Shown here piece after piece: positions 10,566-37,251 of a DNA stretch of 64,000 nt. Source of the DNA: Candidatus Hydrogenedens sp. (GTDB taxonomy: Bacteria > Hydrogenedentota > Hydrogenedentia > Hydrogenedentales > Hydrogenedentaceae); the NCBI GenBank assembly GCA_049968235.1, contig JBMFRC010000005.1, forward strand, positions 96,001 through 160,000, written 5' to 3'. Position 1 is the stretch's first letter. Each line of letters opens with the position of its first letter. The translations under genes and the position numbers were made by a program. The notes under the pieces were generated by a model. That model was not told where the DNA came from, ran no database searches, and was given only the letters and a program-made list of their open reading frames with translations.

Positions 10566-11071
10566 GGCTTGATTAACTCCTTCCCGGGTCGGAGTATATG
10601 GTAAATCTTTACCAGAGAAGTTACCGCAAAGGATAGTGCCAACCAGAATGGAACCCAATATACCGGTAACTGCACTGTAGAAGTTACCTCACCGGAACGA
10701 TAAAGAGATAGACCATGCTTTATCATGAAAACAATAATTAATATAAAGAGTGTTAACATCATCAATCGGGAGATAGTATCGATAATAACCTTTAGAACTC
10801 GGGATATTCTTCTAAACAGAAATTCAATGGCGATATGTCCTTTAACGGCGGTAGTATAAGGAAGTGCTCCCCCTAAAACTACAGCACTTGCCAGACGAAT
10901 ATAATCCATACTCCCGCGAAGACCATTTCCAAAAAATCTCCCGATAACATCTGCCATGACGACTATTACGATAAAAAGTAAGGCAAGAGCGGATATAATC
11001 CCTAATATATAAACAAGAATACGAACCCCTTTCCCATACATTTCTATTAAATTTGAAATACTAATTTTCAA
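10562..11071 (-). CDS. dctQ: TRAP transporter small permease subunit (DctQ family)
   Basis: About 170 aa with 4 TM helices, lying between dctP and dctM. Confidence 0.7.
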   Translation of the reverse strand: MKISISNLIEMYGKGVRILVYILGIISALALLFIVIVVMADVIGRFFGNGLRGSMDYIRLASAVVLGGALPYTTAVKGHIAIEFLFRRISRVLKVIIDTISRLMMLTLFILIIVFMIKHGLSLYRSGEVTSTVQLPVYWVPFWLALSFAVTSLVKIYHILRPGKELIKP

Positions 11072-11085
11072 TGAGACCCACCACC

Positions 11086-12250: not shown

Positions 12251-14761
12251 TCACAATTTCAGTTTGTAATATTTACCCACCGTTGCCACAAACAATTGCC
12301 CCTTGAAATTTAAAGTTATGGTTTCCCGCTGTGGACTGAATTCGGAGAGTATCCAATCGCCGACAATTTTATCTCCCAGACGGAAGAATTGCTCCATCGT
12401 CTTTTTATCTTTTGTGTATAGGGAAACGCGAAATTGAGGAGAAGAATTATTCCCTTCTGTTTTGTCCACAACTTTTGCAAAGCCGTGAAAGAAAACTAAA
12501 ACCTCTCCTTCTTGTAAAAAGCGCAATGCTGTTTCGGATGTATTTTGCAGTTCCATAAAAATAGATTGCTCGGCTGTTGCTGAGTCTGTAACTGTATTAT
12601 TTTCTATACGGGTATTATTTTCCTCATTCTTTTCAATCACCTTTTCCTTATTGTTTTCGATAACAGGATTCTCCTCCTTTTGAGGGGGGACATTTTCCTT
12701 TTTTTGTTCCGGTAAAACCAATCGGATTTGTTTGGGTTGATAGTAATTCCCTTTACCTTCTAATCTGAAGATATAAACCCCCGGAGCAAGTTGGTAAAAA
12801 AGTGTAATAGATTTTGTTGGTCCAATTCTTCCACCTTCTTTATTAAAAACCAGAGCAATAGGTTGCGAAGAAAAAGTTTCTGTAGTTACTTCATAAGGCA
12901 TGAAATTCTGTTTTTCGTTTCCCTCCATAATTACATTTACATAAACAGGAGCAGGCACATAACGAATATCATTCCCCAGCCATACAGAACGCATTCCTTT
13001 ATTATGGATGTTTATTTCTACCCGATAGTTTCCTGTAGATGCAATATATTCTGTTCTCCCCGCAGCTCCTAATATGGCGTTCCCCTGCAATGCTCCGAAA
13101 CAATCTGTTGAGATAATAGCGACTTCAAGTAGTGTAAAAATTGTAGAGAGTAAGGGTATCCATCGAAATCTTTTGTCTTTATAAAGAGAAACCCATACTG
13201 CGACACCAATCAGTCCTAACAATATATAAACCGACACTACTCTAAAAGCAAAAAAACCATGCGGTGAGGCTCTCAAATCTCCACCATACGGGGTAACACT
13301 ATACCATGCAAAATTGATATGGAGTGTAAATAAGAAAACATAGGAGACCCACAAAATACTCAATCCTATTCCTCGCCATTTTCGGTAAGGAATAGAACCT
13401 ACAAGAGCCAATAGTATTGCAGAGATAAACAATCCAATTATCATCATAACTAATATTTCGGTAGATACCAATCCCTGACTCTGGGTCATGGGTATCATTA
13501 TCAACATTATCAATAATGCGGAACAGAACCAGGCAATCCAGGAGTCGGCTCCAATTTCTATTTGTCCTCTATCGGGTCCAATTCTTGCAATAAAAGTACC
13601 CTGCAAAGAGGGAATATCAAAACGGGAATTGGCACTAATGGCTCTGCGTGCTGTGTCTTTTGTGTGGATAAGGTCTAATCGTGCCTGGAATAATTCTTCC
13701 TGCAATTCTCGCGCTTTGTTAATGTCAATGATGTGTGCTTCTTTCTGTTTATCAATGCGATTAATATTTTTCTCAATGGACTCCAGGTCCAATTCACAAT
13801 CAGCAACTAACTGTTCGAGTCGTTCACGATAGAAAGAGATAGCACTCTGAATAATCTTTAATCGTGCATCCCATTCCGCAAGACCTTTTTCTCCTACCTC
13901 CGGATTTACCCTGCCCTCCTCTACCATTTTTCGCCATTCCGCATATTTGTGTTCTACATCCGCCCTTAAATCAATATACTTTTGAATCTCTTTAATAAGA
14001 AGCGATAGAACCGAAATATTTTTATCCTCTTCCTCCAATGGAAAAACAATATCCGGAACCTTATCCGGCAATTTGGAGAAATCAGTATCAATATATCCTC
14101 CTGCTAATTCTGGACTTACTGTTGAAAGCCAACCTTCCAGATTTTTTCTCCGCCACATTAGTCGTTCTCTACGAATTCTTAGAGGTACAACAGTTTTCCA
14201 GTAATATTTAAATTCTATGTCCCCTGTTCGGAAAGAGACCACAATTTTCCCCAGTTCTTTTTCTACCTGTTTGAGTTGTTCCAGGACCTCGCTTCGCCGG
14301 TTTTTTATTTTGTCATCTAAAGAGGCTCGCATTCGGCGAATTTTTGAGAGGATTTCTAACAAATCCGTTTTTGATTCTTTCCCTATAGGTTTCTTTTGCC
14401 GTATCGCCTGTAGATACCGCTGTGCTTTATACTCCGCACAGATTAATATCTGTAAAATTTCCAAGGAATCAAAAGGCAAAGAATACACACCACTGAAATC
14501 AGAAAGCACTTGCTCTTCATCGGAAGTGGTTTCGCTTATGGGTTCCGATTTCTCGCGTGAAGATTTTTTACGGAGGTATTCCGGATGGTCTTTGAGATAG
14601 AGTTCCGTTATCCCAGGTGGAAGTTCTTCCTTCGTGGGGATACGAATTTTTTGTCTGCAAGCAACGCAGCGTCCCGGCTTACCATACATATCCGCCTGGA
14701 CTCGCATTTTCTGACCACAGATACAATATATTCTCAGTTCCGCATCTTTAGGCTCGGACAT
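12251..14761 (-). CDS. Large hypothetical protein: N-terminal Zn-ribbon, long coiled-coil, multi-TM segment and a C-terminal beta-rich domain
   Basis: 'CICGQKMRV...CVACRQKIRIP' is a C4 ribbon. Roughly 350 aa of heptad-rich K/E/R sequence follow, then 5-6 hydrophobic helices. 836 aa. Confidence 0.6.
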   Translation of the reverse strand: MSEPKDAELRIYCICGQKMRVQADMYGKPGRCVACRQKIRIPTKEELPPGITELYLKDHPEYLRKKSSREKSEPISETTSDEEQVLSDFSGVYSLPFDSLEILQILICAEYKAQRYLQAIRQKKPIGKESKTDLLEILSKIRRMRASLDDKIKNRRSEVLEQLKQVEKELGKIVVSFRTGDIEFKYYWKTVVPLRIRRERLMWRRKNLEGWLSTVSPELAGGYIDTDFSKLPDKVPDIVFPLEEEDKNISVLSLLIKEIQKYIDLRADVEHKYAEWRKMVEEGRVNPEVGEKGLAEWDARLKIIQSAISFYRERLEQLVADCELDLESIEKNINRIDKQKEAHIIDINKARELQEELFQARLDLIHTKDTARRAISANSRFDIPSLQGTFIARIGPDRGQIEIGADSWIAWFCSALLIMLIMIPMTQSQGLVSTEILVMMIIGLFISAILLALVGSIPYRKWRGIGLSILWVSYVFLFTLHINFAWYSVTPYGGDLRASPHGFFAFRVVSVYILLGLIGVAVWVSLYKDKRFRWIPLLSTIFTLLEVAIISTDCFGALQGNAILGAAGRTEYIASTGNYRVEINIHNKGMRSVWLGNDIRYVPAPVYVNVIMEGNEKQNFMPYEVTTETFSSQPIALVFNKEGGRIGPTKSITLFYQLAPGVYIFRLEGKGNYYQPKQIRLVLPEQKKENVPPQKEENPVIENNKEKVIEKNEENNTRIENNTVTDSATAEQSIFMELQNTSETALRFLQEGEVLVFFHGFAKVVDKTEGNNSSPQFRVSLYTKDKKTMEQFFRLGDKIVGDWILSEFSPQRETITLNFKGQLFVATVGKYYKLKL

Positions 14762-16774: not shown

Positions 16775-18979
16775 ATGTTTTTACGACTGTGCTTTATAGG
16801 AATCCTTTTATCTTTTACTCCATGGGCTTCCTCAGAATTCTGGTATGAAAAGGCAAGGGTTGGAATGGAGGTCGGTCCAACAGGGGCACAATGGGGTTTT
16901 TCCAGCGTGAACGATGAACGGTATTGCTCCAAATGGGATGGGGCAGAAATTGTGCGGAGATGTCATCAAGCCAATTGTGATTATGTTGTCGTATGGGTTC
17001 GAGATGGTGATTATGCATACTACAATTCAAAAATTCTGTTAAAAGCACCCGGACTAAAAGACCGTGACCCCCTCAAGGAATCCATTAACGAGGCAAAAAA
17101 ATATAATATGCCTGTAATCGCTTATTGTGTGGTTCAACAAGGAGGGCATTACATCGAGCAACATCCAGAATTTCTTATGCACGACCTTAATGGAAAGCCT
17201 ATTTATCATCGTTTTTGTTATAACTCGGGCTATCTGGAAGTAATGAAACAAATTGTTGACGAAATTATGGATTATGGGGTTCAGGGATTTCATATTGATA
17301 TGGTGGACCAGGGGTTCGGACCTCCGTATGGTTGTGCCTGTCCTGCATGTAAGAATCTATTTAAGGAACAGTATGGATTGGAAATGCCAACCTCTATCAC
17401 CTGGGATGATGCGTGGAAAAACTTCTTAGAGTTTCGCTATAAAAGCAGTGAAAATTTTGAAAAAAAGTTATATGCATACATTAAAAACCGTGATGCAAAA
17501 GTTTCAGTAGATTTCAATTACCACGGAAACCCTCCCTTCAGTTTTGAGGTAGGTCAACGACCTGTTCAACACGGAGAAAATGGTGATTTTATTACGGGTG
17601 AAACAGGTATCTGGGGTTTCAGTGCCTTAACGGTCGGGCTGAATGCAGAATTTTATCGTTCAGCGGTTCCTCATCAACGGGTTCAGGTGGCAATACAACG
17701 AGGTGTGAGAATGTATCACGACCAAACGACACGCCCGTTGAATGATATTCGCTGGGAATTGTTAACTTTGTTTGCTCATGGTTCCTTCGTTACTATGGTA
17801 GATAAGTTAGGTTTTGATGGCACAGCAGACCCTATTGCTTATAACCGCATCGGCAAAGCCTTTCAAGAAATTAAGGAAAAGAAAGGGTTCTTTTATCATA
17901 AGCCTGTATATGAAGTGGGAATATATTTTAGTAGTAAAACACGAGATTGGGTTGCAAGAGAAAATCCTTCCATTTATTTTACATCATTTCAGGGAACACA
18001 TAAAGCAATGGTGTATGAACATATTCCCTGGGGTATCCTGTTAGATGAGAATTGCACTTATGAAAAACTGATACAATTTCCGGTAGTTATTCTACCTAAT
18101 GTGGGAATTCTGTCGTCAGCAGAGATAAATATGTTCACAAACTATGTGTATGAGGGAGGAAAATTGATTATTACAGGGGTTACAGGTTGCTATGACGATT
18201 TCGGAAATATCGGTACTTATAAACTGGAGCCATTAACAGGTTGTAAATTTGTGTCAAAACTGGAAAGTGAAGACAACTGGATTTCTCTGGGACCCACACA
18301 ATCGCAAGAAGAAGAACAATTGGCAAAAGAAATTGAACATGCTCATATAAATGAAGAGGAGTATAAAAATTCAGATACCATGCCTTTATTGATAAGAGGA
18401 CCCGCTGGGATATTTGAAACTACATCTGCAAAAGCGATAGGTAAATTATGGAAGCCCTACCGTACCCAACGCCAGACAGAAGGGAAAGAAGGAACAGACC
18501 TACCTATGAGTCCTGAAACAACCATAGGTCCTGCAATATTTATAAATCACATAGGTAAGGGTACCGTAATGACATGGACATGCTCGCCGGACTATGCATT
18601 AGGCTCTGAGTATGCTCTATCTGAATGTAGAAAACTAATGCTAAATGCAGTTCATTATCTGAACCCAGGTCCTGAGATACAAATATCCGCACCGAGTTTT
18701 GTGGAAACGGTTATCCTTCGCAAGCCAGAAAATGACGGTTTTTATGTCCATTGTATTGCATATTCATCTCCACCCCAGACCATTCCTATGAAAAATCGTC
18801 CTTATATTCTCCCCTCTTTGATTGAAGATACTCCATGTTTTTATTTGACAATTACAACAGTAAATCCTATTCAATCTACCATCGCAAACAACACAACCAC
18901 CCAAATTGAAAGAATCGCTGATAATAAAATCAAAGCATTTGTAACTGACATTCACGAAGTAATCACACTGATACATTAA
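16775..18979 (+). CDS. Large secreted hypothetical protein, possibly glycoside-hydrolase-like (TIM barrel with a Cys cluster)
   Basis: Signal peptide; 'GFHIDMVDQGFGPPYGCACPACKNLF'; 734 aa. I do not firmly recognise a family. Confidence 0.5.
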   Translation: MFLRLCFIGILLSFTPWASSEFWYEKARVGMEVGPTGAQWGFSSVNDERYCSKWDGAEIVRRCHQANCDYVVVWVRDGDYAYYNSKILLKAPGLKDRDPLKESINEAKKYNMPVIAYCVVQQGGHYIEQHPEFLMHDLNGKPIYHRFCYNSGYLEVMKQIVDEIMDYGVQGFHIDMVDQGFGPPYGCACPACKNLFKEQYGLEMPTSITWDDAWKNFLEFRYKSSENFEKKLYAYIKNRDAKVSVDFNYHGNPPFSFEVGQRPVQHGENGDFITGETGIWGFSALTVGLNAEFYRSAVPHQRVQVAIQRGVRMYHDQTTRPLNDIRWELLTLFAHGSFVTMVDKLGFDGTADPIAYNRIGKAFQEIKEKKGFFYHKPVYEVGIYFSSKTRDWVARENPSIYFTSFQGTHKAMVYEHIPWGILLDENCTYEKLIQFPVVILPNVGILSSAEINMFTNYVYEGGKLIITGVTGCYDDFGNIGTYKLEPLTGCKFVSKLESEDNWISLGPTQSQEEEQLAKEIEHAHINEEEYKNSDTMPLLIRGPAGIFETTSAKAIGKLWKPYRTQRQTEGKEGTDLPMSPETTIGPAIFINHIGKGTVMTWTCSPDYALGSEYALSECRKLMLNAVHYLNPGPEIQISAPSFVETVILRKPENDGFYVHCIAYSSPPQTIPMKNRPYILPSLIEDTPCFYLTITTVNPIQSTIANNTTTQIERIADNKIKAFVTDIHEVITLIH

Positions 18980-20584: not shown

Positions 20585-21343
20585 ATGATACCTGGAATAT
20601 ACATATCCGCAGGTGGAATGATTGCCTCAGAACAGAGGCAATCTATTTATGCCAATAATGTTGCCAATGCAAGCACAGCAGGCTACAAGGCATTAACACC
20701 TGTGCAATTGGGTTTTTATCCGTTAGTGCAGAAAGTCGGGGAAAGTTATCATATGTATGTTCCTAAAACAGCACCTGGCGGTGGGGTAAAAGTGGTAGAA
20801 ATATTCCCAGATTTGTCGTTGGGTCCGTTAAAGCAGACCGATAATCCGTTGAACATAGCCATTCATGGACCGGGATATATTGTTTTACAAACGCCTGCCG
20901 GTGAAAGATTTACACGTGCTGGAGATTTAACACTGGATGCGGAAGGTTATTTATCCACTCCGCAAGGGTATCGTGTTTTGGGGGCTAATGGTCAACCCAT
21001 ACAAATACAGGGAACGGAAGTAAATATTTCTTCAGATGGAAATGTAACTGTGGATGGGGTTCCCGCGGGGCAAATTCGTTGTGTGGAGTTTAAAGATCCG
21101 GAGCGGTTAACCCGTGAAGGTGAAAACATATACTCTGCAAGTCAGGAAATTCAGCAAGGTATGCAACCCGCATCCAAAAGTTCCCTTCGTCAGGGATATC
21201 TGGAATGGTCAAATACAAAAATACCTACGGAAATGATACGAATAACTCTGGGACTTCGTGCTTACGAAGCCAATCAGCGAGTTATTTCTGCAATAGATGA
21301 ATCTATAGGTAGATTAATTGAACAAGTAGGACTTGCTGGTTAA
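20585..21343 (+). CDS. flgF: Flagellar basal-body rod protein FlgF
   Basis: Rod-protein N-terminus 'IYISAGGMIASEQRQSIYANNVANASTAGYK' and C-terminal 'LGLRAYEANQRVISAIDE'. Confidence 0.8.
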   Translation: MIPGIYISAGGMIASEQRQSIYANNVANASTAGYKALTPVQLGFYPLVQKVGESYHMYVPKTAPGGGVKVVEIFPDLSLGPLKQTDNPLNIAIHGPGYIVLQTPAGERFTRAGDLTLDAEGYLSTPQGYRVLGANGQPIQIQGTEVNISSDGNVTVDGVPAGQIRCVEFKDPERLTREGENIYSASQEIQQGMQPASKSSLRQGYLEWSNTKIPTEMIRITLGLRAYEANQRVISAIDESIGRLIEQVGLAG

Positions 21344-21365
21344 ACCATAAAAGAAGGATGAATAT

Positions 21366-22157
21366 ATGATTCGTTCATTGTTTACGGCGGCAACAGGAAT
21401 GATTGCTCAACAAATGAATATTGACGCCATTGCGAACAATCTATCAAATGTGAACACAACCGGATTTAAGCGAAGTCGTGTAAATTTTCAGGATTTGTTG
21501 TATGAAACCATCAAACCCGCAGGAAGTGAAACGACTGCAGGAACAACCATTCCGGAGGGTATTCAAATTGGACATGGAGTTCGTCCTTCTGCTGTTTCAA
21601 AAATCTTTTCATCGGGTTCTGCCATTCAAACGGGTAATCCATTGGATTTAATGATTGAAGGCGATGGCTTCTTTCAGATTGAATTACCCGATGGTACTAC
21701 CGCCTATACGCGAGACGGTGCTTTTAAAATTAATGAAGAAGGGACCATAATGACTGTGGATGGTTATCCGTTAACCCCTGCAATTACTATTCCTACGGAA
21801 GCAGAGTTGATAACGATTGGTGCAGATGGAACAGTCTCTGCCCGTGTTCCTGGTGATAATACTCCTCAAAATATAGGCACTTTGGAATTAGCCCGATTTT
21901 CTAATCCTGCAGGGCTTGATGCGAGATTGGGTAGGAATCTATTTCTCGAGACACAAGCCTCCGGTGCCCCTAATGTAGGGCAACCCGGCCTGGATGGTCT
22001 TGGCACTATTGCACAGGGCTTTCTGGAAAATTCAAATGTTCAGGTTGTAGAAGAGGTTATTCAGATGATTATTGCTCAGCGTGCGTATGAAGCCAATTCA
22101 CGTGTTATTCAAGCCTCTGATGAAATGCTTCAGACTGCTAATAATATAAGGAGATAA
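21366..22157 (+). CDS. flgG: Flagellar distal rod protein FlgG
   Basis: '[44 protein letters not shown]' and C-terminal '[24 protein letters not shown]'. Confidence 0.9.
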
Positions 22158-22165
22158 TTTAACGG

Positions 22166-23137
22166 ATGACCGCATGTTTATCGGAAAAATATATAACTCA
22201 ATTTAACAAGATTATTTTGTTATATTTGACGATTTTTTTACTACAAATCGAGGGATATTCACAAAATATGGCGATAAAATCGGAGGTAGAAGTTTCGAGT
22301 GATAGAGTGATGTTAAATGATGTTTTAGATTGTGTTGATACTGGATTTGTGCATGATATTCCATTATTACCTGCACCGAAACCGGGATATGCGAGGGTTA
22401 TTCCGAATACACTAATATTTTCAAAAATGAAACAAATGGGTGTTAATGCAGAAAGTTTGAGCATGGGAGAAACAGGTCAAACTGTGGTGAAAAGAGCCAC
22501 CACAGTTATATCTAAAGATATTCTTGTAGAATCACTTTGCCATTACATTCAGCAACAAATGCCATGGGAAGTAAATCAGACACGAATAGAGATATACCCC
22601 CCGTCAGAAGATTTAGCCTTTCCTGAGGGAGATGTAGAAATCACATGGAAACCCAATAATTCATATCGTTATTTAGGAGTAGGTATCTTTCGTGGAATTA
22701 TCCGTGTAGAGGGGAAGGTCCAAAAAACTATTATTTGTAGGGTTATAATAGAAACAGAGGGTATGCTTGTCATTGCAGTTCGTGATATTCCACGGGGAGA
22801 GACAATCACCGAAAAGGATATAACTGTTCGTCAAATGACACTTTCACGGAATACGGGGACTCCTATCTGGGATTTGAACTCGGTTATCGGTATGTCAGCC
22901 CGAAAATTTATCCCTTCCGGTGCAACTATTCAACTGGAGGATATTGAATCCCCTGTGATTATAAAGCGGAATCAGATAGTCCCTATAGAATACACACAGG
23001 GCGGTATTTCTATATCCGCCAAAGTAAAAGTGCTATCGGATGCACGAATAGGAGAACGAGTTCGGTGTATATATTTAAATTCGGAACAGCAACTCGATGC
23101 GGTAGTTCAATCAGATGGAACAGTTAAAGTGGAGTAA
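22166..23137 (+). CDS. flgA: Flagellar P-ring assembly chaperone FlgA (SAF-domain protein)
   Basis: Lies between flgG and flgH. Has a signal-like N-terminus and a C-terminal SAF-like region 'GETITEKDITVRQM...VPIEY'. The true start may be internal. Confidence 0.5.
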   Translation: MTACLSEKYITQFNKIILLYLTIFLLQIEGYSQNMAIKSEVEVSSDRVMLNDVLDCVDTGFVHDIPLLPAPKPGYARVIPNTLIFSKMKQMGVNAESLSMGETGQTVVKRATTVISKDILVESLCHYIQQQMPWEVNQTRIEIYPPSEDLAFPEGDVEITWKPNNSYRYLGVGIFRGIIRVEGKVQKTIICRVIIETEGMLVIAVRDIPRGETITEKDITVRQMTLSRNTGTPIWDLNSVIGMSARKFIPSGATIQLEDIESPVIIKRNQIVPIEYTQGGISISAKVKVLSDARIGERVRCIYLNSEQQLDAVVQSDGTVKVE

Positions 23138-23140
23138 ACA

Positions 23141-23791
23141 ATGATGAAAGACAATAGTCGCGTATTTGTTGTGTTTTTATGTTGTGTTTTTTGTATTTTA
23201 TTCTTTTCTTTTGGAGATAGCCTGTTTACCCCTGAAGCCCAGCATTCCGGAACTTTAATATCCGAAAAAGGAACACGTTTCCAGCCTGGCGATATTATCA
23301 CAATACTTGTTCGTGAAAAAATTTCTGCAAGTACGACAGCCGACACGAACACAAAGAAAGAGTCCGATGTCGAAAGTAAAGCGAATGAGAAAGATAATAA
23401 TTTTTTAACGGCAGATAGCCCCGATGGTTTAGGCTTATTAAACTCAGATTTATTACCAAACTGGAAGATTGAAGCAAAAAATGAAACGAAGGCAAGAGGA
23501 AAAACAACCCGAACAAGCACATTAACGACAACTATAGCTTGCATAGTAACCCAGGTATATCCGAATGGAAACTTAAAAATAGAAGGTGAAAAACGAGTAA
23601 CTGTAAATCGAGAAGATTCACTTTTGACTGTTAGTGGGGTTGTTCGCTCAAAAGATGTGGCTCCGGACAATACTGTATTATCTACACAGGTAGCAAATGC
23701 TCAAGTTCAACTCAAAGGTAAAGGTGAGTTGTGGAACAATCAACGGCGTGGAATTATTACAAAGATTTTAGATTGGTTCTCACCATTCTAA
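23141..23791 (+). CDS. flgH: Flagellar L-ring lipoprotein FlgH
   Basis: 'GDIITILVREKISA' and 'VTQVYPNGNLKIEGEKRVTVNREDSLLTVSGVVRSKDVAPDNTVLSTQVANAQV' match conserved FlgH blocks. Confidence 0.8.
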   Translation: MMKDNSRVFVVFLCCVFCILFFSFGDSLFTPEAQHSGTLISEKGTRFQPGDIITILVREKISASTTADTNTKKESDVESKANEKDNNFLTADSPDGLGLLNSDLLPNWKIEAKNETKARGKTTRTSTLTTTIACIVTQVYPNGNLKIEGEKRVTVNREDSLLTVSGVVRSKDVAPDNTVLSTQVANAQVQLKGKGELWNNQRRGIITKILDWFSPF

Positions 23792-23805
23792 AGAGGAGTT
23801 TAGTT

Positions 23806-24915
23806 ATGGTTCAAAAAAAGATTCCCTTGTATTTGTTTGTATGGATACTTCTTTTCCCCATGCTTGCAGATTCGGCACGGATACGCGATTTGTGTGAGAT
23901 TCAGGGTGCTCGTGGAAATATATTAAAAGGAATAGGTCTGGTTGTAGGGCTTGCAGGTACCGGTGATAGTGTCGGGGTGACGCGTCTGGCTCAGCGACAG
24001 ATGTTAGACCGTTTAGGGATTACCGTTAGTAATTTAAAAGACCTGACACCCAAAAACTCTGCAATAGTGATGGTAACCGCAGAAATTCCGCCTTTTGCTA
24101 AAGAAGGGACACGGATTGATGTAAAAATAGATACATTGGGGGATTGTAAGAGTTTAGAAGGTGGAATGCTTCTGGAGACCCATTTGCGAGGTCCTGGATT
24201 AGGAGAGACTGTATATGCTGTGGCTCAGGGTCCGATTTCTATAGGAGGATTTAATGCAGAAAAAGGAGGGGGTGGGAGTACGGCTGTCCGAAAAAATCAC
24301 CCAACATCGGGACGAATACCTTTAGGAGCATATGTGGAACGAGAGGTCCCTTCAACCATTACAGATGGAGAACGAATTGTCCTTTTATTGAAGCAACCGG
24401 AGTTTAACACCGCAGATAAAATTCGCCAGGCTATTGAAAATCAATTTGGAGAAAATGTGGCTTTTGCTATGGGTGGCGGTTCTGTTCGCGTTACTGTTCC
24501 GGAGTCCTACTATAATGACCTGACGGGTTTTATTGCACGGATTGAAAATATAGAGGTAACTACAAGTCCACCCGCCAAAATTATAATAAATGAAAGGACG
24601 GGTACCATTGTAATCGGAGGGGATATCGTTGTAAAACCCTGCCAGGTGGCTCACGGGAATATGACGATTAAAATTACTTCTACTCCTCAAGTAACCCCAG
24701 CCACACCTTTTACGGAAAGTCAACCTGTTGTTAAAGAGACTACCGCTATGGAAGTAAAGGAAACGGAGGCTTACCTGATGCCCGTTTCAGGGACTTCTGC
24801 AGGTGAAGTAGCAGAGGCTTTAAACCGATTAAAGGTTACTCCGAGAGATATGATTTCTATTTTCCAGGCTTTGAAAGAAGCAGGAGCCCTTGAGGCAGAG
24901 GTGGAGATTATGTAA
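23806..24915 (+). CDS. flgI: Flagellar P-ring protein FlgI (start at MVQKK after SD 'aggag')
   Basis: 'RIRDLCEIQGARGNILKGIGLVVGLAGTGD' is the FlgI signature; signal peptide present. The longer ORF from 23731 overlaps flgH. Confidence 0.85.
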   Translation: MVQKKIPLYLFVWILLFPMLADSARIRDLCEIQGARGNILKGIGLVVGLAGTGDSVGVTRLAQRQMLDRLGITVSNLKDLTPKNSAIVMVTAEIPPFAKEGTRIDVKIDTLGDCKSLEGGMLLETHLRGPGLGETVYAVAQGPISIGGFNAEKGGGGSTAVRKNHPTSGRIPLGAYVEREVPSTITDGERIVLLLKQPEFNTADKIRQAIENQFGENVAFAMGGGSVRVTVPESYYNDLTGFIARIENIEVTTSPPAKIIINERTGTIVIGGDIVVKPCQVAHGNMTIKITSTPQVTPATPFTESQPVVKETTAMEVKETEAYLMPVSGTSAGEVAEALNRLKVTPRDMISIFQALKEAGALEAEVEIM

Positions 24916-25245
24916 ATGTTGTATGTAAACCCTATAAATTATGTCATGCCTAATATTAATCTTGTAGGTAATGAAGATGCCCGAAAAAAAGTGGCCGGTG
25001 AGGAGATGGAACGATTATTTTTATACGAACTTTTAAAGGAAATGCGCAAAACGATAGTTGCCTCTAAACTGTTTCCTCAAAATTCCACAAAAGAAATTTA
25101 TTACGACATGTTGAATGATGCTTTAGCAGGGGAAATGGCAAAATCGGGACAGTTAGGTATAGCGAAACAAATTATTCAAAATACGGGGGCAATGGAGCAA
25201 AGGGCAAATAATACGGTGAAAATCAAATCGATAGATAAAGTTTAA
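24916..25245 (+). CDS. Rod-binding protein (FlgJ N-terminal-domain-like)
   Basis: 'EEMERLFLYELLKEMRKT...YYDMLNDALAGEMAKSGQLGIAKQI' resembles FlgJ N-terminal 'FESLFLQQMLKSMR...MLDQQLAQQLSKGGGLGLA'. Confidence 0.6.
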   Translation: MLYVNPINYVMPNINLVGNEDARKKVAGEEMERLFLYELLKEMRKTIVASKLFPQNSTKEIYYDMLNDALAGEMAKSGQLGIAKQIIQNTGAMEQRANNTVKIKSIDKV

Positions 25246-25292
25246 GAAAACAATGCAATTTGCCGATAACTAATAATGTAAAGGAATAAAAG

Positions 25293-25622
25293 ATGGTGCA
25301 ATGGCTTACGGGATTGAGTGCTATTAACTCATTAGCAAAGACACTTATGGTGATAACACAAAAGAAAGCAACAAAACCAAAAAATAATTTCTCGGATGTT
25401 CTTAAATCAGAACTGAAGACAAAAGAACTATCCCGAGAGAAGGCAGAAAAACTTGTTTCGTTATATGATGTGAATCATGACCAGAAAATTTCTGCCCGAG
25501 AAAGTGGAATGACAGTTCAAGAATTCCAGCAGTGGGATACCAATAAAGATGGATATATCACTGCACAGGAAATACAGATGTTATGGTCACATCTCGGACC
25601 TTTCAAAGGGCTAAAGGACTAA
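25293..25622 (+). CDS. Small protein with two canonical EF-hand Ca2+-binding loops
   Basis: 'DVNHDQKISARE' and 'DTNKDGYITAQE' both fit DxNxDxxIxxxE. It sits inside the flagellar cluster. Confidence 0.5.
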   Translation: MVQWLTGLSAINSLAKTLMVITQKKATKPKNNFSDVLKSELKTKELSREKAEKLVSLYDVNHDQKISARESGMTVQEFQQWDTNKDGYITAQEIQMLWSHLGPFKGLKD

Positions 25623-25634
25623 AAGGATTGGATT

Positions 25635-26138
25635 ATGAGAGAAATAGAGTGCTTATGTGAATTATTAGAGGAGCAGGCGGAGCGACAAGAGACTTTAGTA
25701 TCGGTTTGTCTGGCACAATTACAATCTGGTTTTGAAGGAAATATCAAATATTTTAATGAGAAAACATCTGCAATGGAGTATCTTGTAAAAGAAACAACTC
25801 GTGTTGAATTTGTTCGTCAAGAATTGGTCAAAAAAATATGTCGCAATCTGGGAATAAATATGTCAGATGGGAGAATACGGAATATTGCAGAACAAGTAGA
25901 GGAACCCTGGAAATCGCGTATTATTGAAGCATGTGACCGAATAAAAGTGGCAGTGCTTTACTTAAAATCGTGGCTTGGTAAAGCAGTTCCTTTTTATCGC
26001 GTTTCGCTGGAATCTGCAAGAAATACCCTTAAAAAGATATATCCTGATTATGAGGAACAAGATAGTTTTTCATATACGGATTTAAATTTAAAGAAATCTG
26101 AAATAGCCTTAACCCGTTTTGTTGATGATAGAGGATAA
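25635..26138 (+). CDS. Hypothetical protein, possibly a FlgN-like export chaperone
   Basis: Helical, about 165 aa, immediately upstream of flgL. Only positional and compositional similarity to FlgN. Confidence 0.35.
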   Translation: MREIECLCELLEEQAERQETLVSVCLAQLQSGFEGNIKYFNEKTSAMEYLVKETTRVEFVRQELVKKICRNLGINMSDGRIRNIAEQVEEPWKSRIIEACDRIKVAVLYLKSWLGKAVPFYRVSLESARNTLKKIYPDYEEQDSFSYTDLNLKKSEIALTRFVDDRG

Positions 26139-26142
26139 GTTT

Positions 26143-27066
26143 ATGGGTATTATTCGTGTTACTTCTCGTATGCTTGTGGACAGGACCCTTACAGACCTGG
26201 CATATCAAACACGAAGAATACTAAGTTTACAGGAACAACTTTCCTCAGGACAGCGTGTAAATCGTCCTTCCGATGACCCGTTAAATGCTCGTAGGGCTAT
26301 TTCTGCTCAATCCATGATTGCACAAAATGAACAGTACATAAAAAATATAACAACTATTCGTCCTTATTTAAATGAGACAGAAACGACAATTACAACAACC
26401 TTAGATATTGTCCAACGGGCAAGAGAGTTAGCAATACAGGGTAGAAACACAACCAACGCACAATTACAACGAGACCAGATTGCAACGGAAGTAAATCAAT
26501 TAATAGAAGCACTACTGAAAGAGGCGAATCATCTAACAAATGGTAGATATATTTTTGGAGGAACGGTCACAATTTCCGCTCCATTTCAGGAGGCAAGAAA
26601 TGCTAATGGAGAAATAACATCGGTGGCTTACACCGGTAATAATGATTATATTAGCGTGGAGATTATGGAAGGAACGCAGGTTATAACAAATCAAACCGGG
26701 AGAGAGGTCTTTCTGTCAACCAGTTCCCAAAGCACAGATATTTTTCAGACCTTGATTTCACTTCGAGATGACTTGCGTTCTGCAAATTTCACAGGGATAG
26801 AACAACGAATTCAACAAGCAAACTATGCTATTTCACAACTCTCATTAGCATTGTCAAAGGTAGGTGCGGTTAGTAAGCGATTGGATACAACAGAAGAAAA
26901 TCTAAGGAATGCAAACATTGAATTTCAGCGGGTTATATCCGATAGTATAGATGCAGATCTGGCAGAGGTGGTTGTTAATCTTAATACACAAACTAACGCA
27001 TATCAAGCAGCACTTAACGCTGCATCGCGTGTTATCCAACCCAGTTTATTGGATTATTTAAGATAA
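26143..27066 (+). CDS. flgL: Flagellar hook-associated protein 3 (FlgL)
   Basis: Flagellin-like N-terminus 'MGIIRVTSRMLVDRTLTDLAYQ...LSSGQRVNRPSDDP' and C-terminal 'QTNAYQAALNAASRVIQPSLLDYL'. Length is about 308 aa. Confidence 0.75.
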   Translation: MGIIRVTSRMLVDRTLTDLAYQTRRILSLQEQLSSGQRVNRPSDDPLNARRAISAQSMIAQNEQYIKNITTIRPYLNETETTITTTLDIVQRARELAIQGRNTTNAQLQRDQIATEVNQLIEALLKEANHLTNGRYIFGGTVTISAPFQEARNANGEITSVAYTGNNDYISVEIMEGTQVITNQTGREVFLSTSSQSTDIFQTLISLRDDLRSANFTGIEQRIQQANYAISQLSLALSKVGAVSKRLDTTEENLRNANIEFQRVISDSIDADLAEVVVNLNTQTNAYQAALNAASRVIQPSLLDYLR

Positions 27067-29210: not shown

Positions 29211-32200
29211 ATGGCTGTGGCTCCCCGAACAGAACGTATTTCATTATCCCGAGCACCTGAGGATTTATCTCATCTGCCCAATCTCATCGAAATTCAGACC
29301 AAATCGTTTGCGGATTTTTTGCAATGGGAGATTCCTCCCCATGAACGGCAAAATAAAGGACTGCAAGCGGTTCTTAACGAGTATTTCCCTATTGAGTCGC
29401 CTAATGGTTTGACGAAATTAGAGTTTGTGTCATACAACATTATCCCTCCAAAATATACAATTGAAGAGTGTCAAAATTTAGGATTGACTTATAGTGGCAC
29501 ATTAAAAGCTACAATGAGACTTACAACATATGAAGAATCCCTCAAAGGTGAAAAGGAAGAGAAGCAGGTTCTTGAACAAGAGGTTTTTATAGCAGAAGTT
29601 CCATTAATGACACCCACAGGAACCTTTATTATTAATGGAGCGGAACGCGTTATTGTAAGTCAATTACATAAATCTCCGGGGGTTTCTTTTGAAAAAAAAC
29701 AGCATCAAGGAGGAAAATACCTTTTATCTGCCCGAATTATTCCCTATCATGGAGCGTGGATAGAATTTGAATATGATATTAATGATGTGTTGTGGATTAT
29801 TGTGGACCGCCGGGTGCGAATGCTGGCAACAACATTCTTAAAGGCTTTAGGATATGTTGAGCCGGATGAAATTCTGAAGATGTTTTATAGGATGGACCGT
29901 GTTCAGATAAAACGGAGTAAGGCATGTATCTTCCAGAAACAGAGGGTAAAGCGTGGAGGTAAAGAAACGGAGAAAGAAGTAGAGACCCGTGTAGAGGTGA
30001 AAGAACTTGTAGGCAATTGGCTTGCCATGGATATAATAGACCCTGAAACCGGTGAAGTTATTGCAGATGCCTCATCACAAATTACAACTGCGGTATTAAA
30101 TGCAATTCTTCGTTCTCCTATTCGAGAGTTTTATATCTTAAATAAGCAGGATGTGCTGAGTGATATAAGTATTGCTCAAACATTGAATATGGATCAGGCT
30201 CAAACGCAAGAAGAGGCGCTTCGTGAGATTTATATTCGTATGAGACCAGGAGACCCGACCAATGATGCTCAATGTCGGAAGCATTTTGAAAGCCTATTTT
30301 TTGACCCGGCTCGTTATGATTTTGCATCCGTAGGCAGGTATAAAATTAACAGAAAATTAGGGTTACAGATTTCACAGAAACAGCGGACTTTGACAAAGGA
30401 AGATATCCTTGAAACCCTTAAATATTTAGTGAAATTACATCGAGGCGAAGGGACTCTGGATGATATTGACCATTTAGGTAATCGCCGTGTAAGGACAGTG
30501 GGTGAACAATTAATGAATCAATTCCGAATTGGTATGGCGCGGATGGAGAAAACAATCCGCGAACGAATGAATTACCGTTCTGAAGACCAGGAATATACCC
30601 CACAATCACTTATCAATTCGAAGCCGGTGGGAATGGTGTTGAAGGAATTTTTCGGAAGGAGTCAGTTATCCCATTTTATGGACCAAATCAATCCTTTATC
30701 CGAACTAACTCATAAACGACGATTAAGTGCATTGGGACCTGGTGGATTAAATCGTGACCGTGCTGGTTTCGAGGTCCGCGATGTTCATCCGACCCATTAT
30801 GGTCGAATCTGCCCGATAGAAACACCTGAAGGACCGAATATCGGATTAATGGCTTCGATGGCAACATATGCACGAATAAATGAATATGGTTTTCTTGAAA
30901 CGCCCTATCGTAAGGTGGAAAATGGAAGAGTCACGGATGAAATTGTTTACCTGACCGCTTATGATGAAGATAATTATAAAATTGCTCAGGCAAATGAACC
31001 TCTGGATAATAAAGGGAAGTTTACAAATCATTTGGTACTTTGCCGACATAAAGGGGACTTCCCAATGGTTCCACCGGAAGAGGTGGATTTTATGGATGTG
31101 TCTCCCAAGCAAATTGTAAGTGCGGCTGCCGCATTAGTCCCATTTCTGGAACACGATGATGCAAACCGTGCCTTGATGGGTTCTAATATGCAACGGCAGG
31201 CAGTTCCTTTATTAAAAGCGGAACAACCTCTTGTAGGAACCGGTCTGGAAAAAATCTGTGCAATAAATTCAGGAACTGCCGTTCGGGCTGAACGGTCTGG
31301 AATTGTAGAATATGCGGATAGCGAAGTGATTCGTATACGTATCGACAGTGCAAAAACAGATAATCCATTTAAGTTGGAAGAAGATGTATATCACTTAAAG
31401 AAATTTACGCGTTCCAATCAAAGTACCTGCATTAATCAAAAGCCTATTGTCCAGAAAGGGGATAGGGTAAGTGCAGGAGATATAATTGCAGATGGACCGG
31501 GTATGTGTGATGGAGAAATGGCATTAGGTAGAAATGTTTTAGTTGCGTTTCTACCGTGGGAAGGATATAACTTTGAAGATGCTATTATCCTGAGTGAAGA
31601 ATTGATTAAAGATGATGTCTTTACCTCTATTCAGGTGGAAGTATTTGAGATTGAAGCACGAGATACAAAATTAGGACCGGAAGAAATTACTCCTGATATT
31701 CCGAATGAAGGGGAAGAGACCCTGAAAAATCTTGATGAGAATGGAATTATTCATATTGGCTCAAAAGTTAAGCCGGGAGATATTCTTGTCGGTAAAGTAA
31801 CACCAAAAGGTGAACAGGAACTGGCACCGGAAGAAAAATTATTAATTGCTATATTCGGAGAAAAAGCAGAGGATGTACGAAATGCCTCTTTATATGTTCC
31901 TCCCGGTACAGAAGGAATAGTTGTGGATGTAAAGGTATCCAGTCGTCGCAATAAATCTATAGATAAACAAACCAAAGCGAGAATTACCCGAGAAGCAGAA
32001 CGTATTAAGCAAGAATATGCTGGGCGGATAGAGAAAATTCGAAAAACTTTTGTGGATTTAGTTCGCGATGATATGTTGGGGCAAAGAATAACGGAAGATG
32101 TTTTCGATTATACAACAAATGCCTATGTGCTTGAAAAAGGCAAATCAGTAAGACCATCACACTTAAAGGATTTGGAGTATTCCATATTAGGACGGTTGAA

Positions 32201-33122
32201 AATTGAAGACAGGAAAATCCAATCGCGGTTTACAAAATTAGTGAATCAGGCAGCGTTAGAAGAACAAAAACTATTGTCATTCCGTGAGAAAGATTTGGAA
32301 CGGTTGAGAGAAGGAGATGAATTACCTCCGGGTGTAAATAAGGTTGTGAAGGTTTATATCGCAACCAAGCGAAAAATGTCTGTTGGTGATAAAATGGCAG
32401 GACGCCATGGAAATAAAGGTGTTGTAGCGAAAATTGTTCCTGTGGAAGATATGCCATTCCTCCCGGATGGAACGCCTATCCAGATTATCTTAAATCCTCT
32501 CGGTGTCCCTTCACGAATGAATGTGGGACAAATTTTAGAAACGCATTTAGGCTGGGCGTTGAAAGTGCTTGGGTTGAAAGTAGCCTCTCCTGTATTTAAC
32601 GGACCGAAAGAAGAGACAATTATAGATTATTTGAAGAAGGCAGGACTTCCCACAAATGGCAAGATAAAACTTCGTGACGGAAAGACGGGTGAAGAATTTC
32701 ATCATGAGACCTGTGTGGGTTATATCTATATGATGAAATTAAATCACATGGTAGATGATAAGATACATGCGCGTGCTATCGGTCCTTATTCCTTAGTAAC
32801 ACAACAGCCATTAGGTGGTAAAGCCAATTCAGGAGGACAGCGATTTGGAGAAATGGAAGTCTGGGCATTAGAGGCGTATGGTGCGGCATATACTCTTCAA
32901 GAGATGCTTACGATAAAATCGGATGATATTCAAGGCAGAACCAAGATTTACGATGCTATCGTAAAAGGGCATTACGAGGTTGAACCCTCTGTACCAGAAT
33001 CCTTTAATGTAATAATCCGTGAAATGCAGAGTTTATGTCTTGATGTAATAAAACTTGCGAAAGTTGAAACAGCAATAGATACAGAAGAAAAAGAAGACGA
33101 GGAGGATATATACATTGGCTAA
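29211..33122 (+). CDS. rpoB: DNA-directed RNA polymerase beta subunit
   Basis: Unmistakable RpoB blocks, including 'GPGGL', 'NMQRQAVPL' and '[14 protein letters not shown]'. Confidence 0.97.
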
Positions 33123-36100
33123 ATATGTACCTACCACATCAGACCGATTTGATGCACTTCAAATTCGGATTGCTTCTCCCGAAGAAATAATGAAATGGTC
33201 AAGGGGAGAAGTAAAAAAGCCTGAAACGCTGAACTATCGGACTTTTAAGCCAGAGAAAGACGGTCTCTTCTGCGAGAAGATATTTGGTCCCACAAAGGAC
33301 TGGGAATGCGGTTGTGGTAAGTATAAGAAAATAAAACATCGGGGTATTGTTTGTGATAAATGCGGTGTTGAAATTACTGAGGCTAAAGTGCGACGGGAAC
33401 GAATGGGTTCAATTCGTCTTGCTGCACCTGTTGCCCATATCTGGTTCTTTAAGAATAATCCCTCGTGTATGGGTAACCTTCTGGATATGCCTGTCCGCAG
33501 TCTGGAACGGGTTATTTATTATGAAAGTTATATTGTAATAGACCCCGGCACAACTCGTCTGGAAAAGATGCAGATTTTATCGGAAGATGAATATCAGGAT
33601 GCAGTGGAAGAATTTGGTTCTAACACATTCAAAGCGAAGATGGGTGCAGAAGCGATAAAGATTTTATTAGAAGAGATAAATTTGGATGCGTTATCATCGG
33701 AACTTCGTGAACAATTTGCAAATTCTACATCAGCACAAACTCGTTCAAAAGCAATCAAACGATTACAAATAGTAGAAGCATTTCGCAAATCAGGGAATCA
33801 ACCATCATGGATGATTCTGGATGTAATCCCTGTTTTGCCCCCCGATTTAAGACCCCTTGTCCCACTGGATGGAGGACGATATGCCACCAGTGATTTAAAT
33901 GACCTTTATCGGCGTGTGTTAAACCGCAATAACCGTCTCAAGAAAATCATGGAAATTCGCACACCGGAGATTATTGTCCGTAATGAGAAACGGATGCTTC
34001 AAGAGGCGGTAGATGCTCTATTTGATAATGGAAGGCATGGTAGAGCGGTAGTAGGTACCAACTTGCGACCTTTGAAATCTTTAAGCGATTTCATCAAAGG
34101 GAAACAGGGACGTTTCCGTCAGAATTTATTAGGTAAGCGTGTGGATTATTCCGGTCGTTCCGTTATCGTTGTGGGTCCGGAGTTAAAACTCAATCAATGT
34201 GGCTTACCCAAACGCATGGCTCTGGCTCTGTTCGAACCGTTTGTTATTAGTCGTCTTCAGGAAAAAGGAACTGCTATAACAATTAAAGCGGCACGAAAAA
34301 TGATACAACAAGAGAGACCAGAGGTATGGGATGTGATAGAAGAAGTAATCAAAGACCATCCTGTGCTTCTGAACCGTGCCCCAACGCTACACCGACTGGG
34401 AATTCAGGCATTCCAACCAATTTTGATAGAAGGAAATGCTATCCGCATACATCCCCTGGTGTGTAGAGCATACAATGCAGACTTTGATGGGGACCAGATG
34501 GCAGTGCATGTGCCTTTAACCCCCGCAGCGCAATTAGAGGCGCATCTCTTAATGATGGGTTCATCCAATATTTTTTCGCCGTCCGATGGTTCTCCTATCG
34601 TTACACCCAGTCAGGATATTGTTCTGGGTATTGCATGGTTATCCCGTTCTCGTCCCGGAGCAAAAGGGGAATGGAAAGAAGAGTGGAAAACAGTGCAAGG
34701 GGAAGTTCTTTGTAATGCAGGGAAAATATATCCGGACAAAGAATCTGTCCTGTTAGCATATCACTTTGGGCATGTGGATATTCATGCAAGAATAAAAATC
34801 CACACTCAGGGTAAAATAGTGGATACAACCGTAGGTAGGGTTATTCTTTGGGATGCACTACCTCCTGAAATTCAATTGGAAGATGTAAATATAGAACATA
34901 ACCAATCCACAATTGGTAAGGTTATTGCGGATTGTTATAAAAGATTTGGACATCGCAAGACAGTAGAATTGCTGGATTGTTTGAAGAATGTCGGGTTTAA
35001 ATATGCTACGAAGTCAGGACTTTCTATCGCAATAGAAGATATGACCATTCCGCCGGATAAAGAAAAGATATTAGCCCGTGCACGTAAACAAGTGGAGAAT
35101 ATCGAACAACAATATCAGCATGGCTTGTTGACACAGAGAGAACGAACCAACAAAATTATTGAGGAATGGAAACGGGCGACGGATGAGGTATCTACGGTAA
35201 TGTTAACCACCCTTGAACAGAAAGAACAGGGCTTTACCGGTTTGTATTTAATGTATACATCAAAAGCGAGAGGTAGTAAGGACCAGATTCGACAGTTAGC
35301 GGGTATGCGTGGTGTAATGGCAAAACCATCAGGTGATGTTATCGAAACGCCGATTACTTCCAATTTCAGGGAAGGACTTAGTGTGCTGGAATATTTCATT
35401 TCTGCTCATGGTGCTCGCAAGGGTCTGGCAGATACCGCATTAAAGACGGCGGATGCGGGATATCTTACGCGACGACTGGTAGATGTTGCTCAGGATGTAA
35501 CTATAGAAGAGTATGATTGCGGAACAATGAACGGTGTGTATGTCGAACCATTAACATCCGGTCCCGATATTGTTACTTCGTTAGATGAGCGAATTGTAGG
35601 AAGATATGCTCTGGACGATATTATTGTTCCGGGATATTCCGAGCCTGTTGTTCGTGCGAACGAAGAGATTACAGAAGAAAAAGCGAAGGTGATAATGGAA
35701 TCCGGTTTACCGGGTATTTATGTGCGTTCCGTGCTTACATGTCAGTCAAAAAGAGGTGTATGTGCCTTATGTTATGGTAGAAATCTTGCAACAGGTAGAT
35801 TGGTTGAATTGGGTGAAGCGGTCGGTATCATTGCTGCACAGGCTATCGGAGAACCCGGTACGCAGTTGACCATGAGAACTTTCCACATCGGAGGTGCGGC
35901 AAGTCTACAGTTGGAAAATCCTGAAATTCGTATCCCGGAAAGTGGTAAGGTTATATTCAACAATATTAGAACCGATAAGAACCGTAAAGGGGAAACTGTT
36001 ATCTTAAATCGTGGCGGAGAAATTCGTGTTCTCAATGATGAAGGGAAAGAGATTATTCGTTTTGCTCCGGCTATGGGCTCTGTTCTCTTTTGTGAAGATG

Positions 36101-37251
36101 GGCAGAAATTGAAGAGAGGTGCCTTATTGTATAAATGGGACCCCTACAACCAGGTTATTGTGGCGGAACGTTCCGGTAAAGTTAAATTGGAAGGTGTTGT
36201 AGAAGGTGTTACCATGCAGGTGGAGATAAATCCAGAAACGCGACTGGAAGAGCGTGTTATTTCAGAACATAAACATGATTTACATCCGCAGGTGCTCATT
36301 GTAAGTGAACATAACGAAGTATTAGCCTTTGCTCCGTTACCTCCCGAGACGCATTTGATGATAAAGGACGGAGATAAAGTCGAAGCGGGAGATATTCTTG
36401 CTAAGACACCTCGTAAATTAGGTAAAACAAAGGATATTGTAGGTGGTCTACCTCGTGTAGCGGAATTATTTGAAGCCCGCGTTCCTAAAAATCCTGCTAT
36501 TATCAGTCATATTGATGGTATAGTAGAAATTGGTGGTTCTTTCAAGGGTATGCGTAAGGTAAAAGTTGTCCCGAAGATTGGTAAAGAGCGTGAATATACT
36601 ATTCCGCCCGGTAAACACCTTTATGTGCAACAAGGAGACCGTGTATATGCGGGACAACAATTAACCGATGGACCCATTATTCTTGAAGATATTCTCGAAA
36701 TCAAGGGAGAAGAAGCGGTTCGCAAATATATCCTGGACGAAATTCAAAGAGTATACCGTGCACAGGGTGTGCGAACCAATGATAAACATCTCGAAATTAT
36801 AATTCGGCAGATGCTCCGTAAAGTGCGTATTAAAGAGAACACCGGCGATTCCCCCTTTGTTGCCCATGAAATCGTTGACCGTTCTAAATTTGAGGAGATT
36901 AATGAAAAAATTATTCGCCGTGGAGGGAAACCGGCAGAGGCAGAACCCATATTGCAGGGAATAAGTAAATCTGCATTAAGCACAGAGAGTTTTATTGCAG
37001 CTGCATCTTTCCAGCATACAACACGTGTTTTGACCGATGCAGCCATTCGTGGAAAGCGAGACCATCTCCGTGGATTGAAAGAGAATGTCATCATAGGACA
37101 TCTCATTCCAGCGGGAACAGGTAGTCGCTTCTATCAAAAATCAGAACCCGTTTTAGCAAGTATTTCCGAAAAAGAATTAGAAGAACATCTGGAAATACAA
37201 ACCGAAGAAAAAGAAAACTATTTGGATATGGAAGAATACAAGACGGAATAA
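33115..37251 (+). CDS. rpoC: DNA-directed RNA polymerase beta' subunit (TTG start overlapping the rpoB stop)
   Basis: The N-terminus aligns with RpoC '[29 protein letters not shown]...[24 protein letters not shown]'. The '[12 protein letters not shown]' catalytic motif is present. Confidence 0.97.

Follow-up and report, generated by a model that had tools for sequence, protein, structure and literature searches.

Small EF-hand proteins are already known from bacteria, and those documented are mostly extracytoplasmic, with micromolar calcium affinity (PMC9132961). EfhP (PA4107) of Pseudomonas aeruginosa is periplasmic and has a Kd of 13.7 uM (PMC9132961), and CaBP of Caulobacter vibrioides is Sec-dependent and periplasmic (PMC13171946). 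The subject of this report is a gene for an EF-hand pair protein of 109 amino acids (aa), at positions 25293..25622 on the + strand of a 64-kb stretch of DNA from Candidatus Hydrogenedens (phylum Hydrogenedentota, uncultured); this whole stretch is called the window below. EfhP, CaBP and calsymin (CasA) of Rhizobium etli are likewise small and have two or three canonical EF-hands. EfhP and CaBP, however, have Sec signal peptides and genes outside flagellar operons, whereas the N-terminus of the Hydrogenedentota family is of flagellar type, and its genes have a predicted sigma-28 promoter and keep a fixed place among flgJ, flgN and flgL. Our literature search found no paper on an EF-hand protein fixed in a flagellar operon, or on EF-hands together with FlgM, and nothing relevant on Hydrogenedentota flagella. 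To our knowledge, the components and regulators of bacterial flagella include no EF-hand calcium-binding protein. The fixed place of such a protein in a late operon suggests that calcium and flagellum assembly are connected in a way not yet described.

Two kinds of flagellar protein and one injectisome substrate offer further comparisons. Like FlgM, the Hydrogenedentota protein has about 100 residues, is encoded directly upstream of flgN behind a sigma-28-type promoter, lacks a Sec signal and could plausibly leave the cell by flagellar type III export, but it has no detectable sequence similarity to FlgM, its C-terminal half is an EF-hand pair instead of sigma-28-binding helices, its N-terminus is strongly conserved and its slot is empty in some relatives. 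Early flagellar subunits are exported on a bipartite signal, an N-terminal hydrophobic signal followed by a gate-recognition motif (Bryant et al., 2022, PMC8983047); in FlgD these are 2-SIAV-5 and 36-FLTLL-40, with an optimal separation of ~24 residues (PMC8983047), and E. coli FliE has SFAGQL, with its F at 34. The protein shares with these early substrates (FlgD, FliE, FliK and the rod proteins) a small non-polar N-terminus and an F-x-x-x-hydrophobic motif at residues ~33-40, and differs from them in lacking an axial (Flg_bb_rod) or FliE domain and in having a late-type rather than a rod/hook-type promoter. XopAW (NCBIfam NF041410) is also an EF-hand protein and, by its family name, a substrate of injectisome type III export; it is a non-flagellar plant-pathogen effector of ~235 aa, and the match to it is weak (E 0.0013, 18.5 bits vs a cut-off of 120).

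The EF-Hand Pair

The gene (109 codons plus stop) has a ribosome-binding site, AAAGGA, at 25280..25285 (+), read from the sequence 8 nt upstream of the ATG, and AAGGA or AGGAG stands at the equivalent place before the gene in relatives. An identical protein is already on deposit from a metagenome-assembled genome of Candidatus Hydrogenedens, where it is annotated as hypothetical. Pairwise comparison with relatives, for pairs with unsaturated synonymous divergence (dS), gave ratios of nonsynonymous to synonymous change (dN/dS) of 0.14-0.25, indicating purifying selection. This is a real, constrained gene and not a chance open reading frame (ORF).

An earlier reading of this DNA, which we call the original prediction, described the 109-aa ORF as having two 12-residue EF-hand loops, and the loops are exactly as it quoted them: loop 1, DVNHDQKISARE, comprises residues 59-70 (25467..25502, +) and loop 2, DTNKDGYITAQE, residues 82-93 (25536..25571, +). 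Against four Pfam EF-hand models with their curated cut-offs (PF00036, PF13405, PF13202 and PF13499), the protein matches EF-hand_1 with E 1.5e-8 (34 bits vs 25.4), EF-hand_6 with 33.5 bits (vs 25), EF-hand_5 with 28.5 bits (vs 25.9) and EF-hand_7, the profile that had been proposed as a check, right at its cut-off (30 bits vs 30), and all 27 aligned family members lie above Pfam EF-hand cut-offs. In both loops, every one of the 22 lineages compared has D at position 1, D or N at 3, D, N, S or T at 5, I, L or V at 8 and E at 12; Gly at position 6 is found in 15/22 lineages for loop 1 and 20/22 for loop 2, and the loop-to-loop spacing is exactly 23 residues in all 22. A single-sequence AlphaFold2 model of residues 41-109 (predicted local distance difference test score, pLDDT, 74.9) has two successive helix-loop-helix units whose loops each contain a short strand. 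The 109-aa protein is a genuine EF-hand pair protein with two canonical predicted calcium-binding sites. Dockerin type I (PF00404) was rejected as an identity: the protein scores 22.3 bits, below the cut-off of 22.9, and 18 of the 27 members give sub-threshold matches.

A Predicted Sigma-28-Type Promoter and a Late Operon

Between flgJ and the EF-hand gene there is a gap of 47 nt, where we identified a sigma-28 (FliA)-type promoter, TTAAG-N15-GCCGATAA, at 25242..25269 (+). Its -35 element, TTAAG, occupies 25242-25246 and its -10 element, GCCGATAA, occupies 25262-25269, with a spacer of 15 nt between them and 23 nt from the end of the -10 element to the ATG; the published sigma-28 consensus is TCTAAAG at -35 and GCCGATAA at -10 (PMC12784957). 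All 21 lineages that have the EF-hand gene carry an element of this kind upstream of it, 18 of them with the strict pattern that we defined (T[A/C/T]AAG, 14-15 nt, [G/T]CCGATA[A/T]) and the other three (L006, L022, L026) with a deviation at one position. In all six related loci without the EF-hand gene, the promoter stands immediately before flgN. The strict pattern is found a single time per locus, and both strands of ~283 kb of unique sequence, the window included, contain no further copy of it. A second exact GCCGATAA in the window, at 38211-38218, lacks a correctly spaced -35 element and lies inside a gene for a SurA-like peptidyl-prolyl isomerase (37545-38495), so it is not a promoter and probably a chance match.

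Because the promoter precedes the EF-hand gene, or flgN where the EF-hand gene is missing, the EF-hand gene, flgN and flgL are a FliA-type late operon with a predicted promoter, in which the EF-hand gene stands first, between promoter and flgN. The presence of FliA is itself implied by the promoter only, which provides the first sequence-level evidence in this analysis for a FliA-type late-gene tier in Hydrogenedentota. No terminator-like site was found between flgJ and the EF-hand gene, so read-through from the rod/ring genes could also occur.

That the ORF lies between a FlgJ-like and a FlgN-like gene, as had been proposed, is borne out by both neighbours. Upstream, at 24916..25245 (+), is a single-domain FlgJ of 109 aa that consists of the rod-binding domain alone (Pfam Rod-binding, the N-terminal domain of FlgJ; E 1.6e-11). 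The downstream gene, at 25635..26138 (+), begins 12 nt past the stop codon of the EF-hand gene and encodes a protein of 167 aa that has no Pfam or NCBIfam match of its own. We nonetheless assign it as a divergent FlgN, the export chaperone, because members of its close-clade family give weak Pfam FlgN matches (5/13), the syntenic gene in more distant relatives matches Pfam FlgN (PF05130) with up to 58.4 bits (cut-off 30.5), and its family profile aligns over the full length with the relative's FlgN that scores 58.4 bits (hhalign probability 98%, E 2e-13). Across the loci the EF-hand gene and flgN are separated by 5-13 nt or overlap. The last gene of the unit is flgL, for hook-filament junction protein 3, at 26143..27066 (+) (TIGR02550, 243.9 bits vs a cut-off of 127.2), whose start is the ATG of the deposited gene call.

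The tightness of this arrangement, which may be translationally coupled and is conserved in all lineages, brings up one explanation at once: the protein could stay in the cytoplasm as a calcium sensor that acts with FlgN or the export gate and tunes the delivery of FlgL and FlgK to intracellular calcium. EF-hand pairs classically bind amphipathic target helices, and the strongly conserved amphipathic N-terminal helix described below is what would be expected of a protein-binding surface. We nevertheless find a cytoplasmic sensor doubtful, since the closest relatives of the EF domain are mostly Sec-exported, six lineages without the gene keep flgN and an intact operon, and the interaction with FlgN or the gate is itself a prediction.

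Conservation of the Gene in the flgJ-flgN Slot

The EF-hand gene occupies the slot between flgJ and flgN in 21 of 27 non-identical related loci. By the original prediction, absence of the ORF from the flg clusters of close relatives would have refuted it; the gene is there in all 10 close lineages and in 11 of the 17 more distant ones. Over this range the identity within the family falls from ~86% to ~21% (21-25% at the far end) with every calcium-ligand position kept, and the guanine-plus-cytosine (GC) content of the loci runs from 38% to 66%. A word-indexed search returned 10 homologues with 56-100% identity, and a profile search of 1.84 billion protein representatives returned three full-length clusters at 50% identity plus one further protein, P0079; the other listed matches that we examined were multi-repeat EF-hand proteins matched over the domain alone. 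Every full-length homologue with a checkable context lies in a flg cluster, except P0079, whose locus is short. All 16 loci with a FlgN of the near clade have the EF-hand gene in the slot, as do all four of the distant loci reached through FlgI homologues with 57-68% identity (EF-hand ORFs of 118-124 aa); the named FlgI matches at this level all belong to Hydrogenedentes, Hydrogenedentota or Hydrogenedentales.

Scanning metagenomes with the distant FlgN as seed turned up 14 loci, 8 of them with the EF-hand gene. The remaining six run from flgJ through the sigma-28-type promoter directly to flgN (L023:714-800, L024:251-320, L025:2231-2310, L031:2929-3010, L032:663-740 and L034:2806-2870). In a neighbour-joining tree of FlgN, three of these loci form a clade nested among loci that bear the gene and a fourth branches separately, a pattern that, in a weak tree, suggests gene loss. 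In most of the Hydrogenedentota sampled, the EF-hand gene is a dedicated component of the flagellar gene set, though one that can be dispensed with. The six loci also offer natural presence/absence variation that can be used for comparative genomics.

Could the gene instead be a passenger with no flagellar role, carried in the operon by chance? Its absence from six related loci in which the operon is undisrupted agrees with this idea, but the position between promoter and flgN has been kept while identity fell to the lower end of the range given above and across the whole span of GC content, the gene is under purifying selection, and its full-length homologues with checkable context are, P0079 excepted, in flg clusters. 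We regard chance carriage as highly unlikely.

P0079 (L019:3-1532) is a protein of 320 aa with three repeats of a similar module; it starts ...GILNAINK and was matched over profile positions 8-104. Despite the similar start we did not accept it as a member of the flagellar family, as its 1.9-kb contig has no flagellar gene, only a glutaredoxin gene downstream and an EF-hand-like ORF upstream. The best domain-level matches in the 1.84-billion-protein library are multi-repeat, secreted bacterial EF-hand proteins such as P0134 and P0045, which share the compact EF-hand pair (loop spacing 24 in P0134 vs 23) and differ in that most have Sec signals or lipoboxes and tandem repeats, and in having neither the N-terminal helix nor the F-x-x-x-L module; among them, gene context was examined for P0079 alone. 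One member of the flagellar family, of 159 aa (L026:2483-2959), has four EF-hand loops, a duplicated pair.

The N-Terminus and Possible Export

Residues 1-23 (25293..25361, +) form a conserved N-terminal helix that alignment, hydrophobicity and hydrophobic moment mark as amphipathic. In the close clade the sequence is almost invariant (MxQWIMGLNAINSLAKTLM, or MxQWxxGLxAINSLAKTLM); in the distant clade it is an amphipathic segment rich in Gly, Ala and Ser, for example MALLTGIGSIVGAARSV and MSLLQGIGAASGLLQGA. The hydrophobic N-terminal segment of the original prediction does exist, but it is moderately hydrophobic and amphipathic, and neither a Sec signal nor a membrane anchor: in the window its best 10-residue Kyte-Doolittle mean is 1.39, Lys16 lies inside it, its Eisenberg mean hydrophobicity is 0.24 and its hydrophobic moment 0.41. 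Across the family the best 10-residue Kyte-Doolittle values are 1.3-2.0, whereas related EF-domain proteins have 2.2-3.0 in their signal peptides; Eisenberg hydrophobicity is 0.05-0.40 (the amphipathic and not the transmembrane range) with moments of 0.25-0.62, and in many members position 2 is Asp or Glu or the segment contains a charge. For a Sec signal we looked for a basic n-region, an uninterrupted hydrophobic core of at least 10 residues and a cleavage site or lipobox, which the N-terminus does not provide; on charge, hydrophobicity and hydrophobic moment together we reject a Sec signal, a lipoprotein or a membrane anchor.

These values bear directly on the possibility that the protein is exported by Sec, or anchored in the membrane, as a periplasmic EF-hand protein of the EfhP/Caulobacter CaBP type that happens to be encoded in a flagellar cluster. 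Such a location would be in keeping with those small, extracytoplasmic EF-hand proteins and with a partly hydrophobic N-terminus. The missing basic n-region, the acidic residue at position 2 or internal charge of many members, the low hydrophobicity on both scales and a degree of N-terminal conservation unlike that of signal peptides make it very improbable.

After the helix comes a basic, Pro-containing linker, and residues 22-46 are charged and probably flexible. Within this region lies F33-S-D-V-L37 (25389..25403, +), an F-x-x-x-hydrophobic motif and a candidate for the motif recognised by the FlhB gate (PMC8983047). All 27 sequences have F33, and L37 is nearly invariant among them. The F stands 33-40 residues from the N-terminus in all 22 lineages (mean 36.2, standard deviation [SD] 1.9), and its distance to EF-hand loop 1 varies from 16 to 39 residues (SD 7.2). 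The N-terminus contains small non-polar residues, V2, L5, G7, L8, A10 and I11 in the window and, for example, MALLTGIGSIV and MSLLQGIGAAS in relatives, and so both elements of the signal of Bryant et al. are present, the second at least ~19-24 residues after the first. FlgJ, FlgG and FlgF of the window have F-x-x-x-hydrophobic at residues 35, 41 and 44. The motif is short, and its occurrence is consistent with a putative gate-recognition role and no proof of one. Among EF-domain homologues elsewhere, at least 87 of the 140 top-scoring pass a crude Sec-signal heuristic, so that this type of domain is mostly extracytoplasmic.

We asked whether the N-terminus might be homologous to that of a known flagellar protein. 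By eye it resembles E. coli FliE (MSAIQGIEGV...SFAGQL), a likeness that we retain as export-signal-like and not as homology: FliE (PF02049) was matched by 2 of 27 members with a best E of 0.021, N-terminal fragments alone had no Pfam match, a hidden Markov model of the family N-terminus scored 8.3 bits against E. coli FliE (7 of 2000 shuffles did as well) and the hhalign probability was 0.3%. Neither FliE nor any other flagellar chain was among the PDB matches to the N-terminal profile. A likeness to the D0 region of axial proteins (GLNA, as in FlgK and FlgE) was not significant.

Our preferred reading, held tentatively at a probability of roughly 0.4, is that the protein is a flagellar-exported accessory that would bind calcium once outside the cytoplasm. 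Recognition and export would probably fall to the flagellar type III apparatus, which we propose because the protein has no Sec signal, has a small non-polar N-terminus and carries an F-x-x-x-hydrophobic motif ~36 residues in. With little calcium in the cytoplasm, the EF-hand pair would carry none there and would unfold readily; once exported, the protein would take up calcium and fold, and it could then assist the growing flagellum from outside the cytoplasm in a calcium-dependent and non-essential way.

A number of points weigh against this proposal. Export is predicted from features of the sequence, and the F-x-x-x-hydrophobic motif is a short one, which could be structural, since one subgroup has it right against the first EF-hand helix. 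Gate-recognition motifs are a feature of early (rod/hook) substrates, but the promoter is a late one, of sigma-28 type, and argues against a purely early export substrate; motif and promoter are compatible only if read-through from flgJ also expresses the EF-hand gene. Export signals are usually much less conserved than this N-terminal helix, whose conservation suggests a binding surface. The six related loci that go from flgJ to flgN directly show that the gene is not essential. Finally, a full-length AlphaFold2 model from 10 close homologues was unusable (pLDDT 44), and fold searches with the domain model gave weak or non-specific matches, so the EF-hand assignment rests on sequence.

The FlgM Question

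The original prediction placed the ORF where flgM is often found and raised the idea of an unusual FlgM analogue. The gene does lie directly upstream of flgN, where many bacteria have flgM, and behind a conserved sigma-28-type promoter, which would give it FlgM-like regulation. Sequence similarity to FlgM was not detected. The FlgM profiles that it had suggested as a check (PF04316 and TIGR03824) matched none of the 27 members at E up to 10, nor was there a FlgM match in NCBIfam; the family profile aligned with E. coli FlgM with an hhalign probability of 0.08%, and no FlgM chain was among the 60 listed PDB sequence matches. With Pfam, NCBIfam and hhalign all negative, we rejected FlgM homology. 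There is also no FlgM-like ORF in the window.

A functional analogue would not need homology. The EF-hand pair might bind FliA in the cytoplasm as an anti-sigma-28 factor of separate origin and release it upon export or in response to calcium, so that late flagellar genes would be expressed in a calcium-responsive way. The protein has about the right length (~110 aa), its gene is the first behind a sigma-28-type promoter and directly upstream of flgN as in flgMN operons (E. coli has the flgM-flgN arrangement), the charged linker at residues 22-46 is probably flexible, there is no Sec signal, and the window offers no other candidate for FlgM. The profile and hhalign results just given speak against it, and no EF-hand anti-sigma factor turned up in the searches that we made. 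The six loci without the gene tell against it as well, for they keep promoter, flgN and flgL with an empty slot, and three of them are nested among loci that have the gene in the neighbour-joining tree; FliA must be controlled there by other means, and since flgJ directly precedes flgN in these loci with no flgM between, the argument from a vacant FlgM slot is weakened. An anti-sigma role is, on this balance, unlikely. The broader proposition, that in much of Hydrogenedentota a non-homologous EF-hand protein has taken the place of FlgM and holds FliA inactive until export or until a calcium-induced conformational change, we likewise consider improbable; if true, flagellar gene expression in bacteria would have its first checkpoint gated by calcium. 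Whether as exported accessory or as FlgM stand-in, the protein would connect calcium with flagellar assembly in a new way, and both readings can be tested with recombinant protein even though the source organisms are uncultured.

Other Features of the Loci

The rod/ring genes flgF, flgG, flgA, flgH and flgI precede flgJ at 20585..24915 (+), as supported by Pfam, NCBIfam and deposited gene calls. The mechanically called ORF for flgI starts at a GTG at 23731 and overlaps flgH; the deposited call and homologues of 369 aa place the real start at 23806. The close-clade FlgN has diverged past detection by Pfam and NCBIfam and has two cysteines, C8 and C25, that are invariant in an alignment of 13 members. 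In the window (25635-27066) and in all the related loci that we examined, flgL comes immediately after flgN without an intervening flgK; these Hydrogenedentota loci thus depart from the usual order flgN-flgK-flgL, and flgK must be encoded elsewhere. The window has no flagellar genes beyond the cluster described here.

What follows flgL varies. In the window it is a GHMP-kinase gene, and in relatives with high GC content it is a conserved gene for a lipoprotein of ~170 aa whose signal sequence ends in a lipobox-like cysteine (LAGC and variants; L016:10690-11208, L017:10576-11085, L018:10660-11175 and L020:10469-10987). This lipoprotein has no Pfam match and is absent from the window, and it may be another uncharacterised flagellar accessory. 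Two species-representative metagenome-assembled genomes with a locus of the Hydrogenedens type, L013 and L015 (CAZJTZ010000009.1 and CAZZMK010000138.1), are titled "uncultured Nitrospirales bacterium", which is probably a taxonomic mislabel or a binning error.

Elsewhere in the window, large ORFs without a Pfam match lie at 12251-14761 (-), 38822-40378 and 42503-43771. The remaining content includes the TRAP transporter genes DctP/Q/M at 9258-12156 (-), a gene for a GHL6/GHL10 glycosyl-hydrolase-like protein of 734 aa at 16775-18979 (+), and rpoB-rpoC at 29211-37251 (+).

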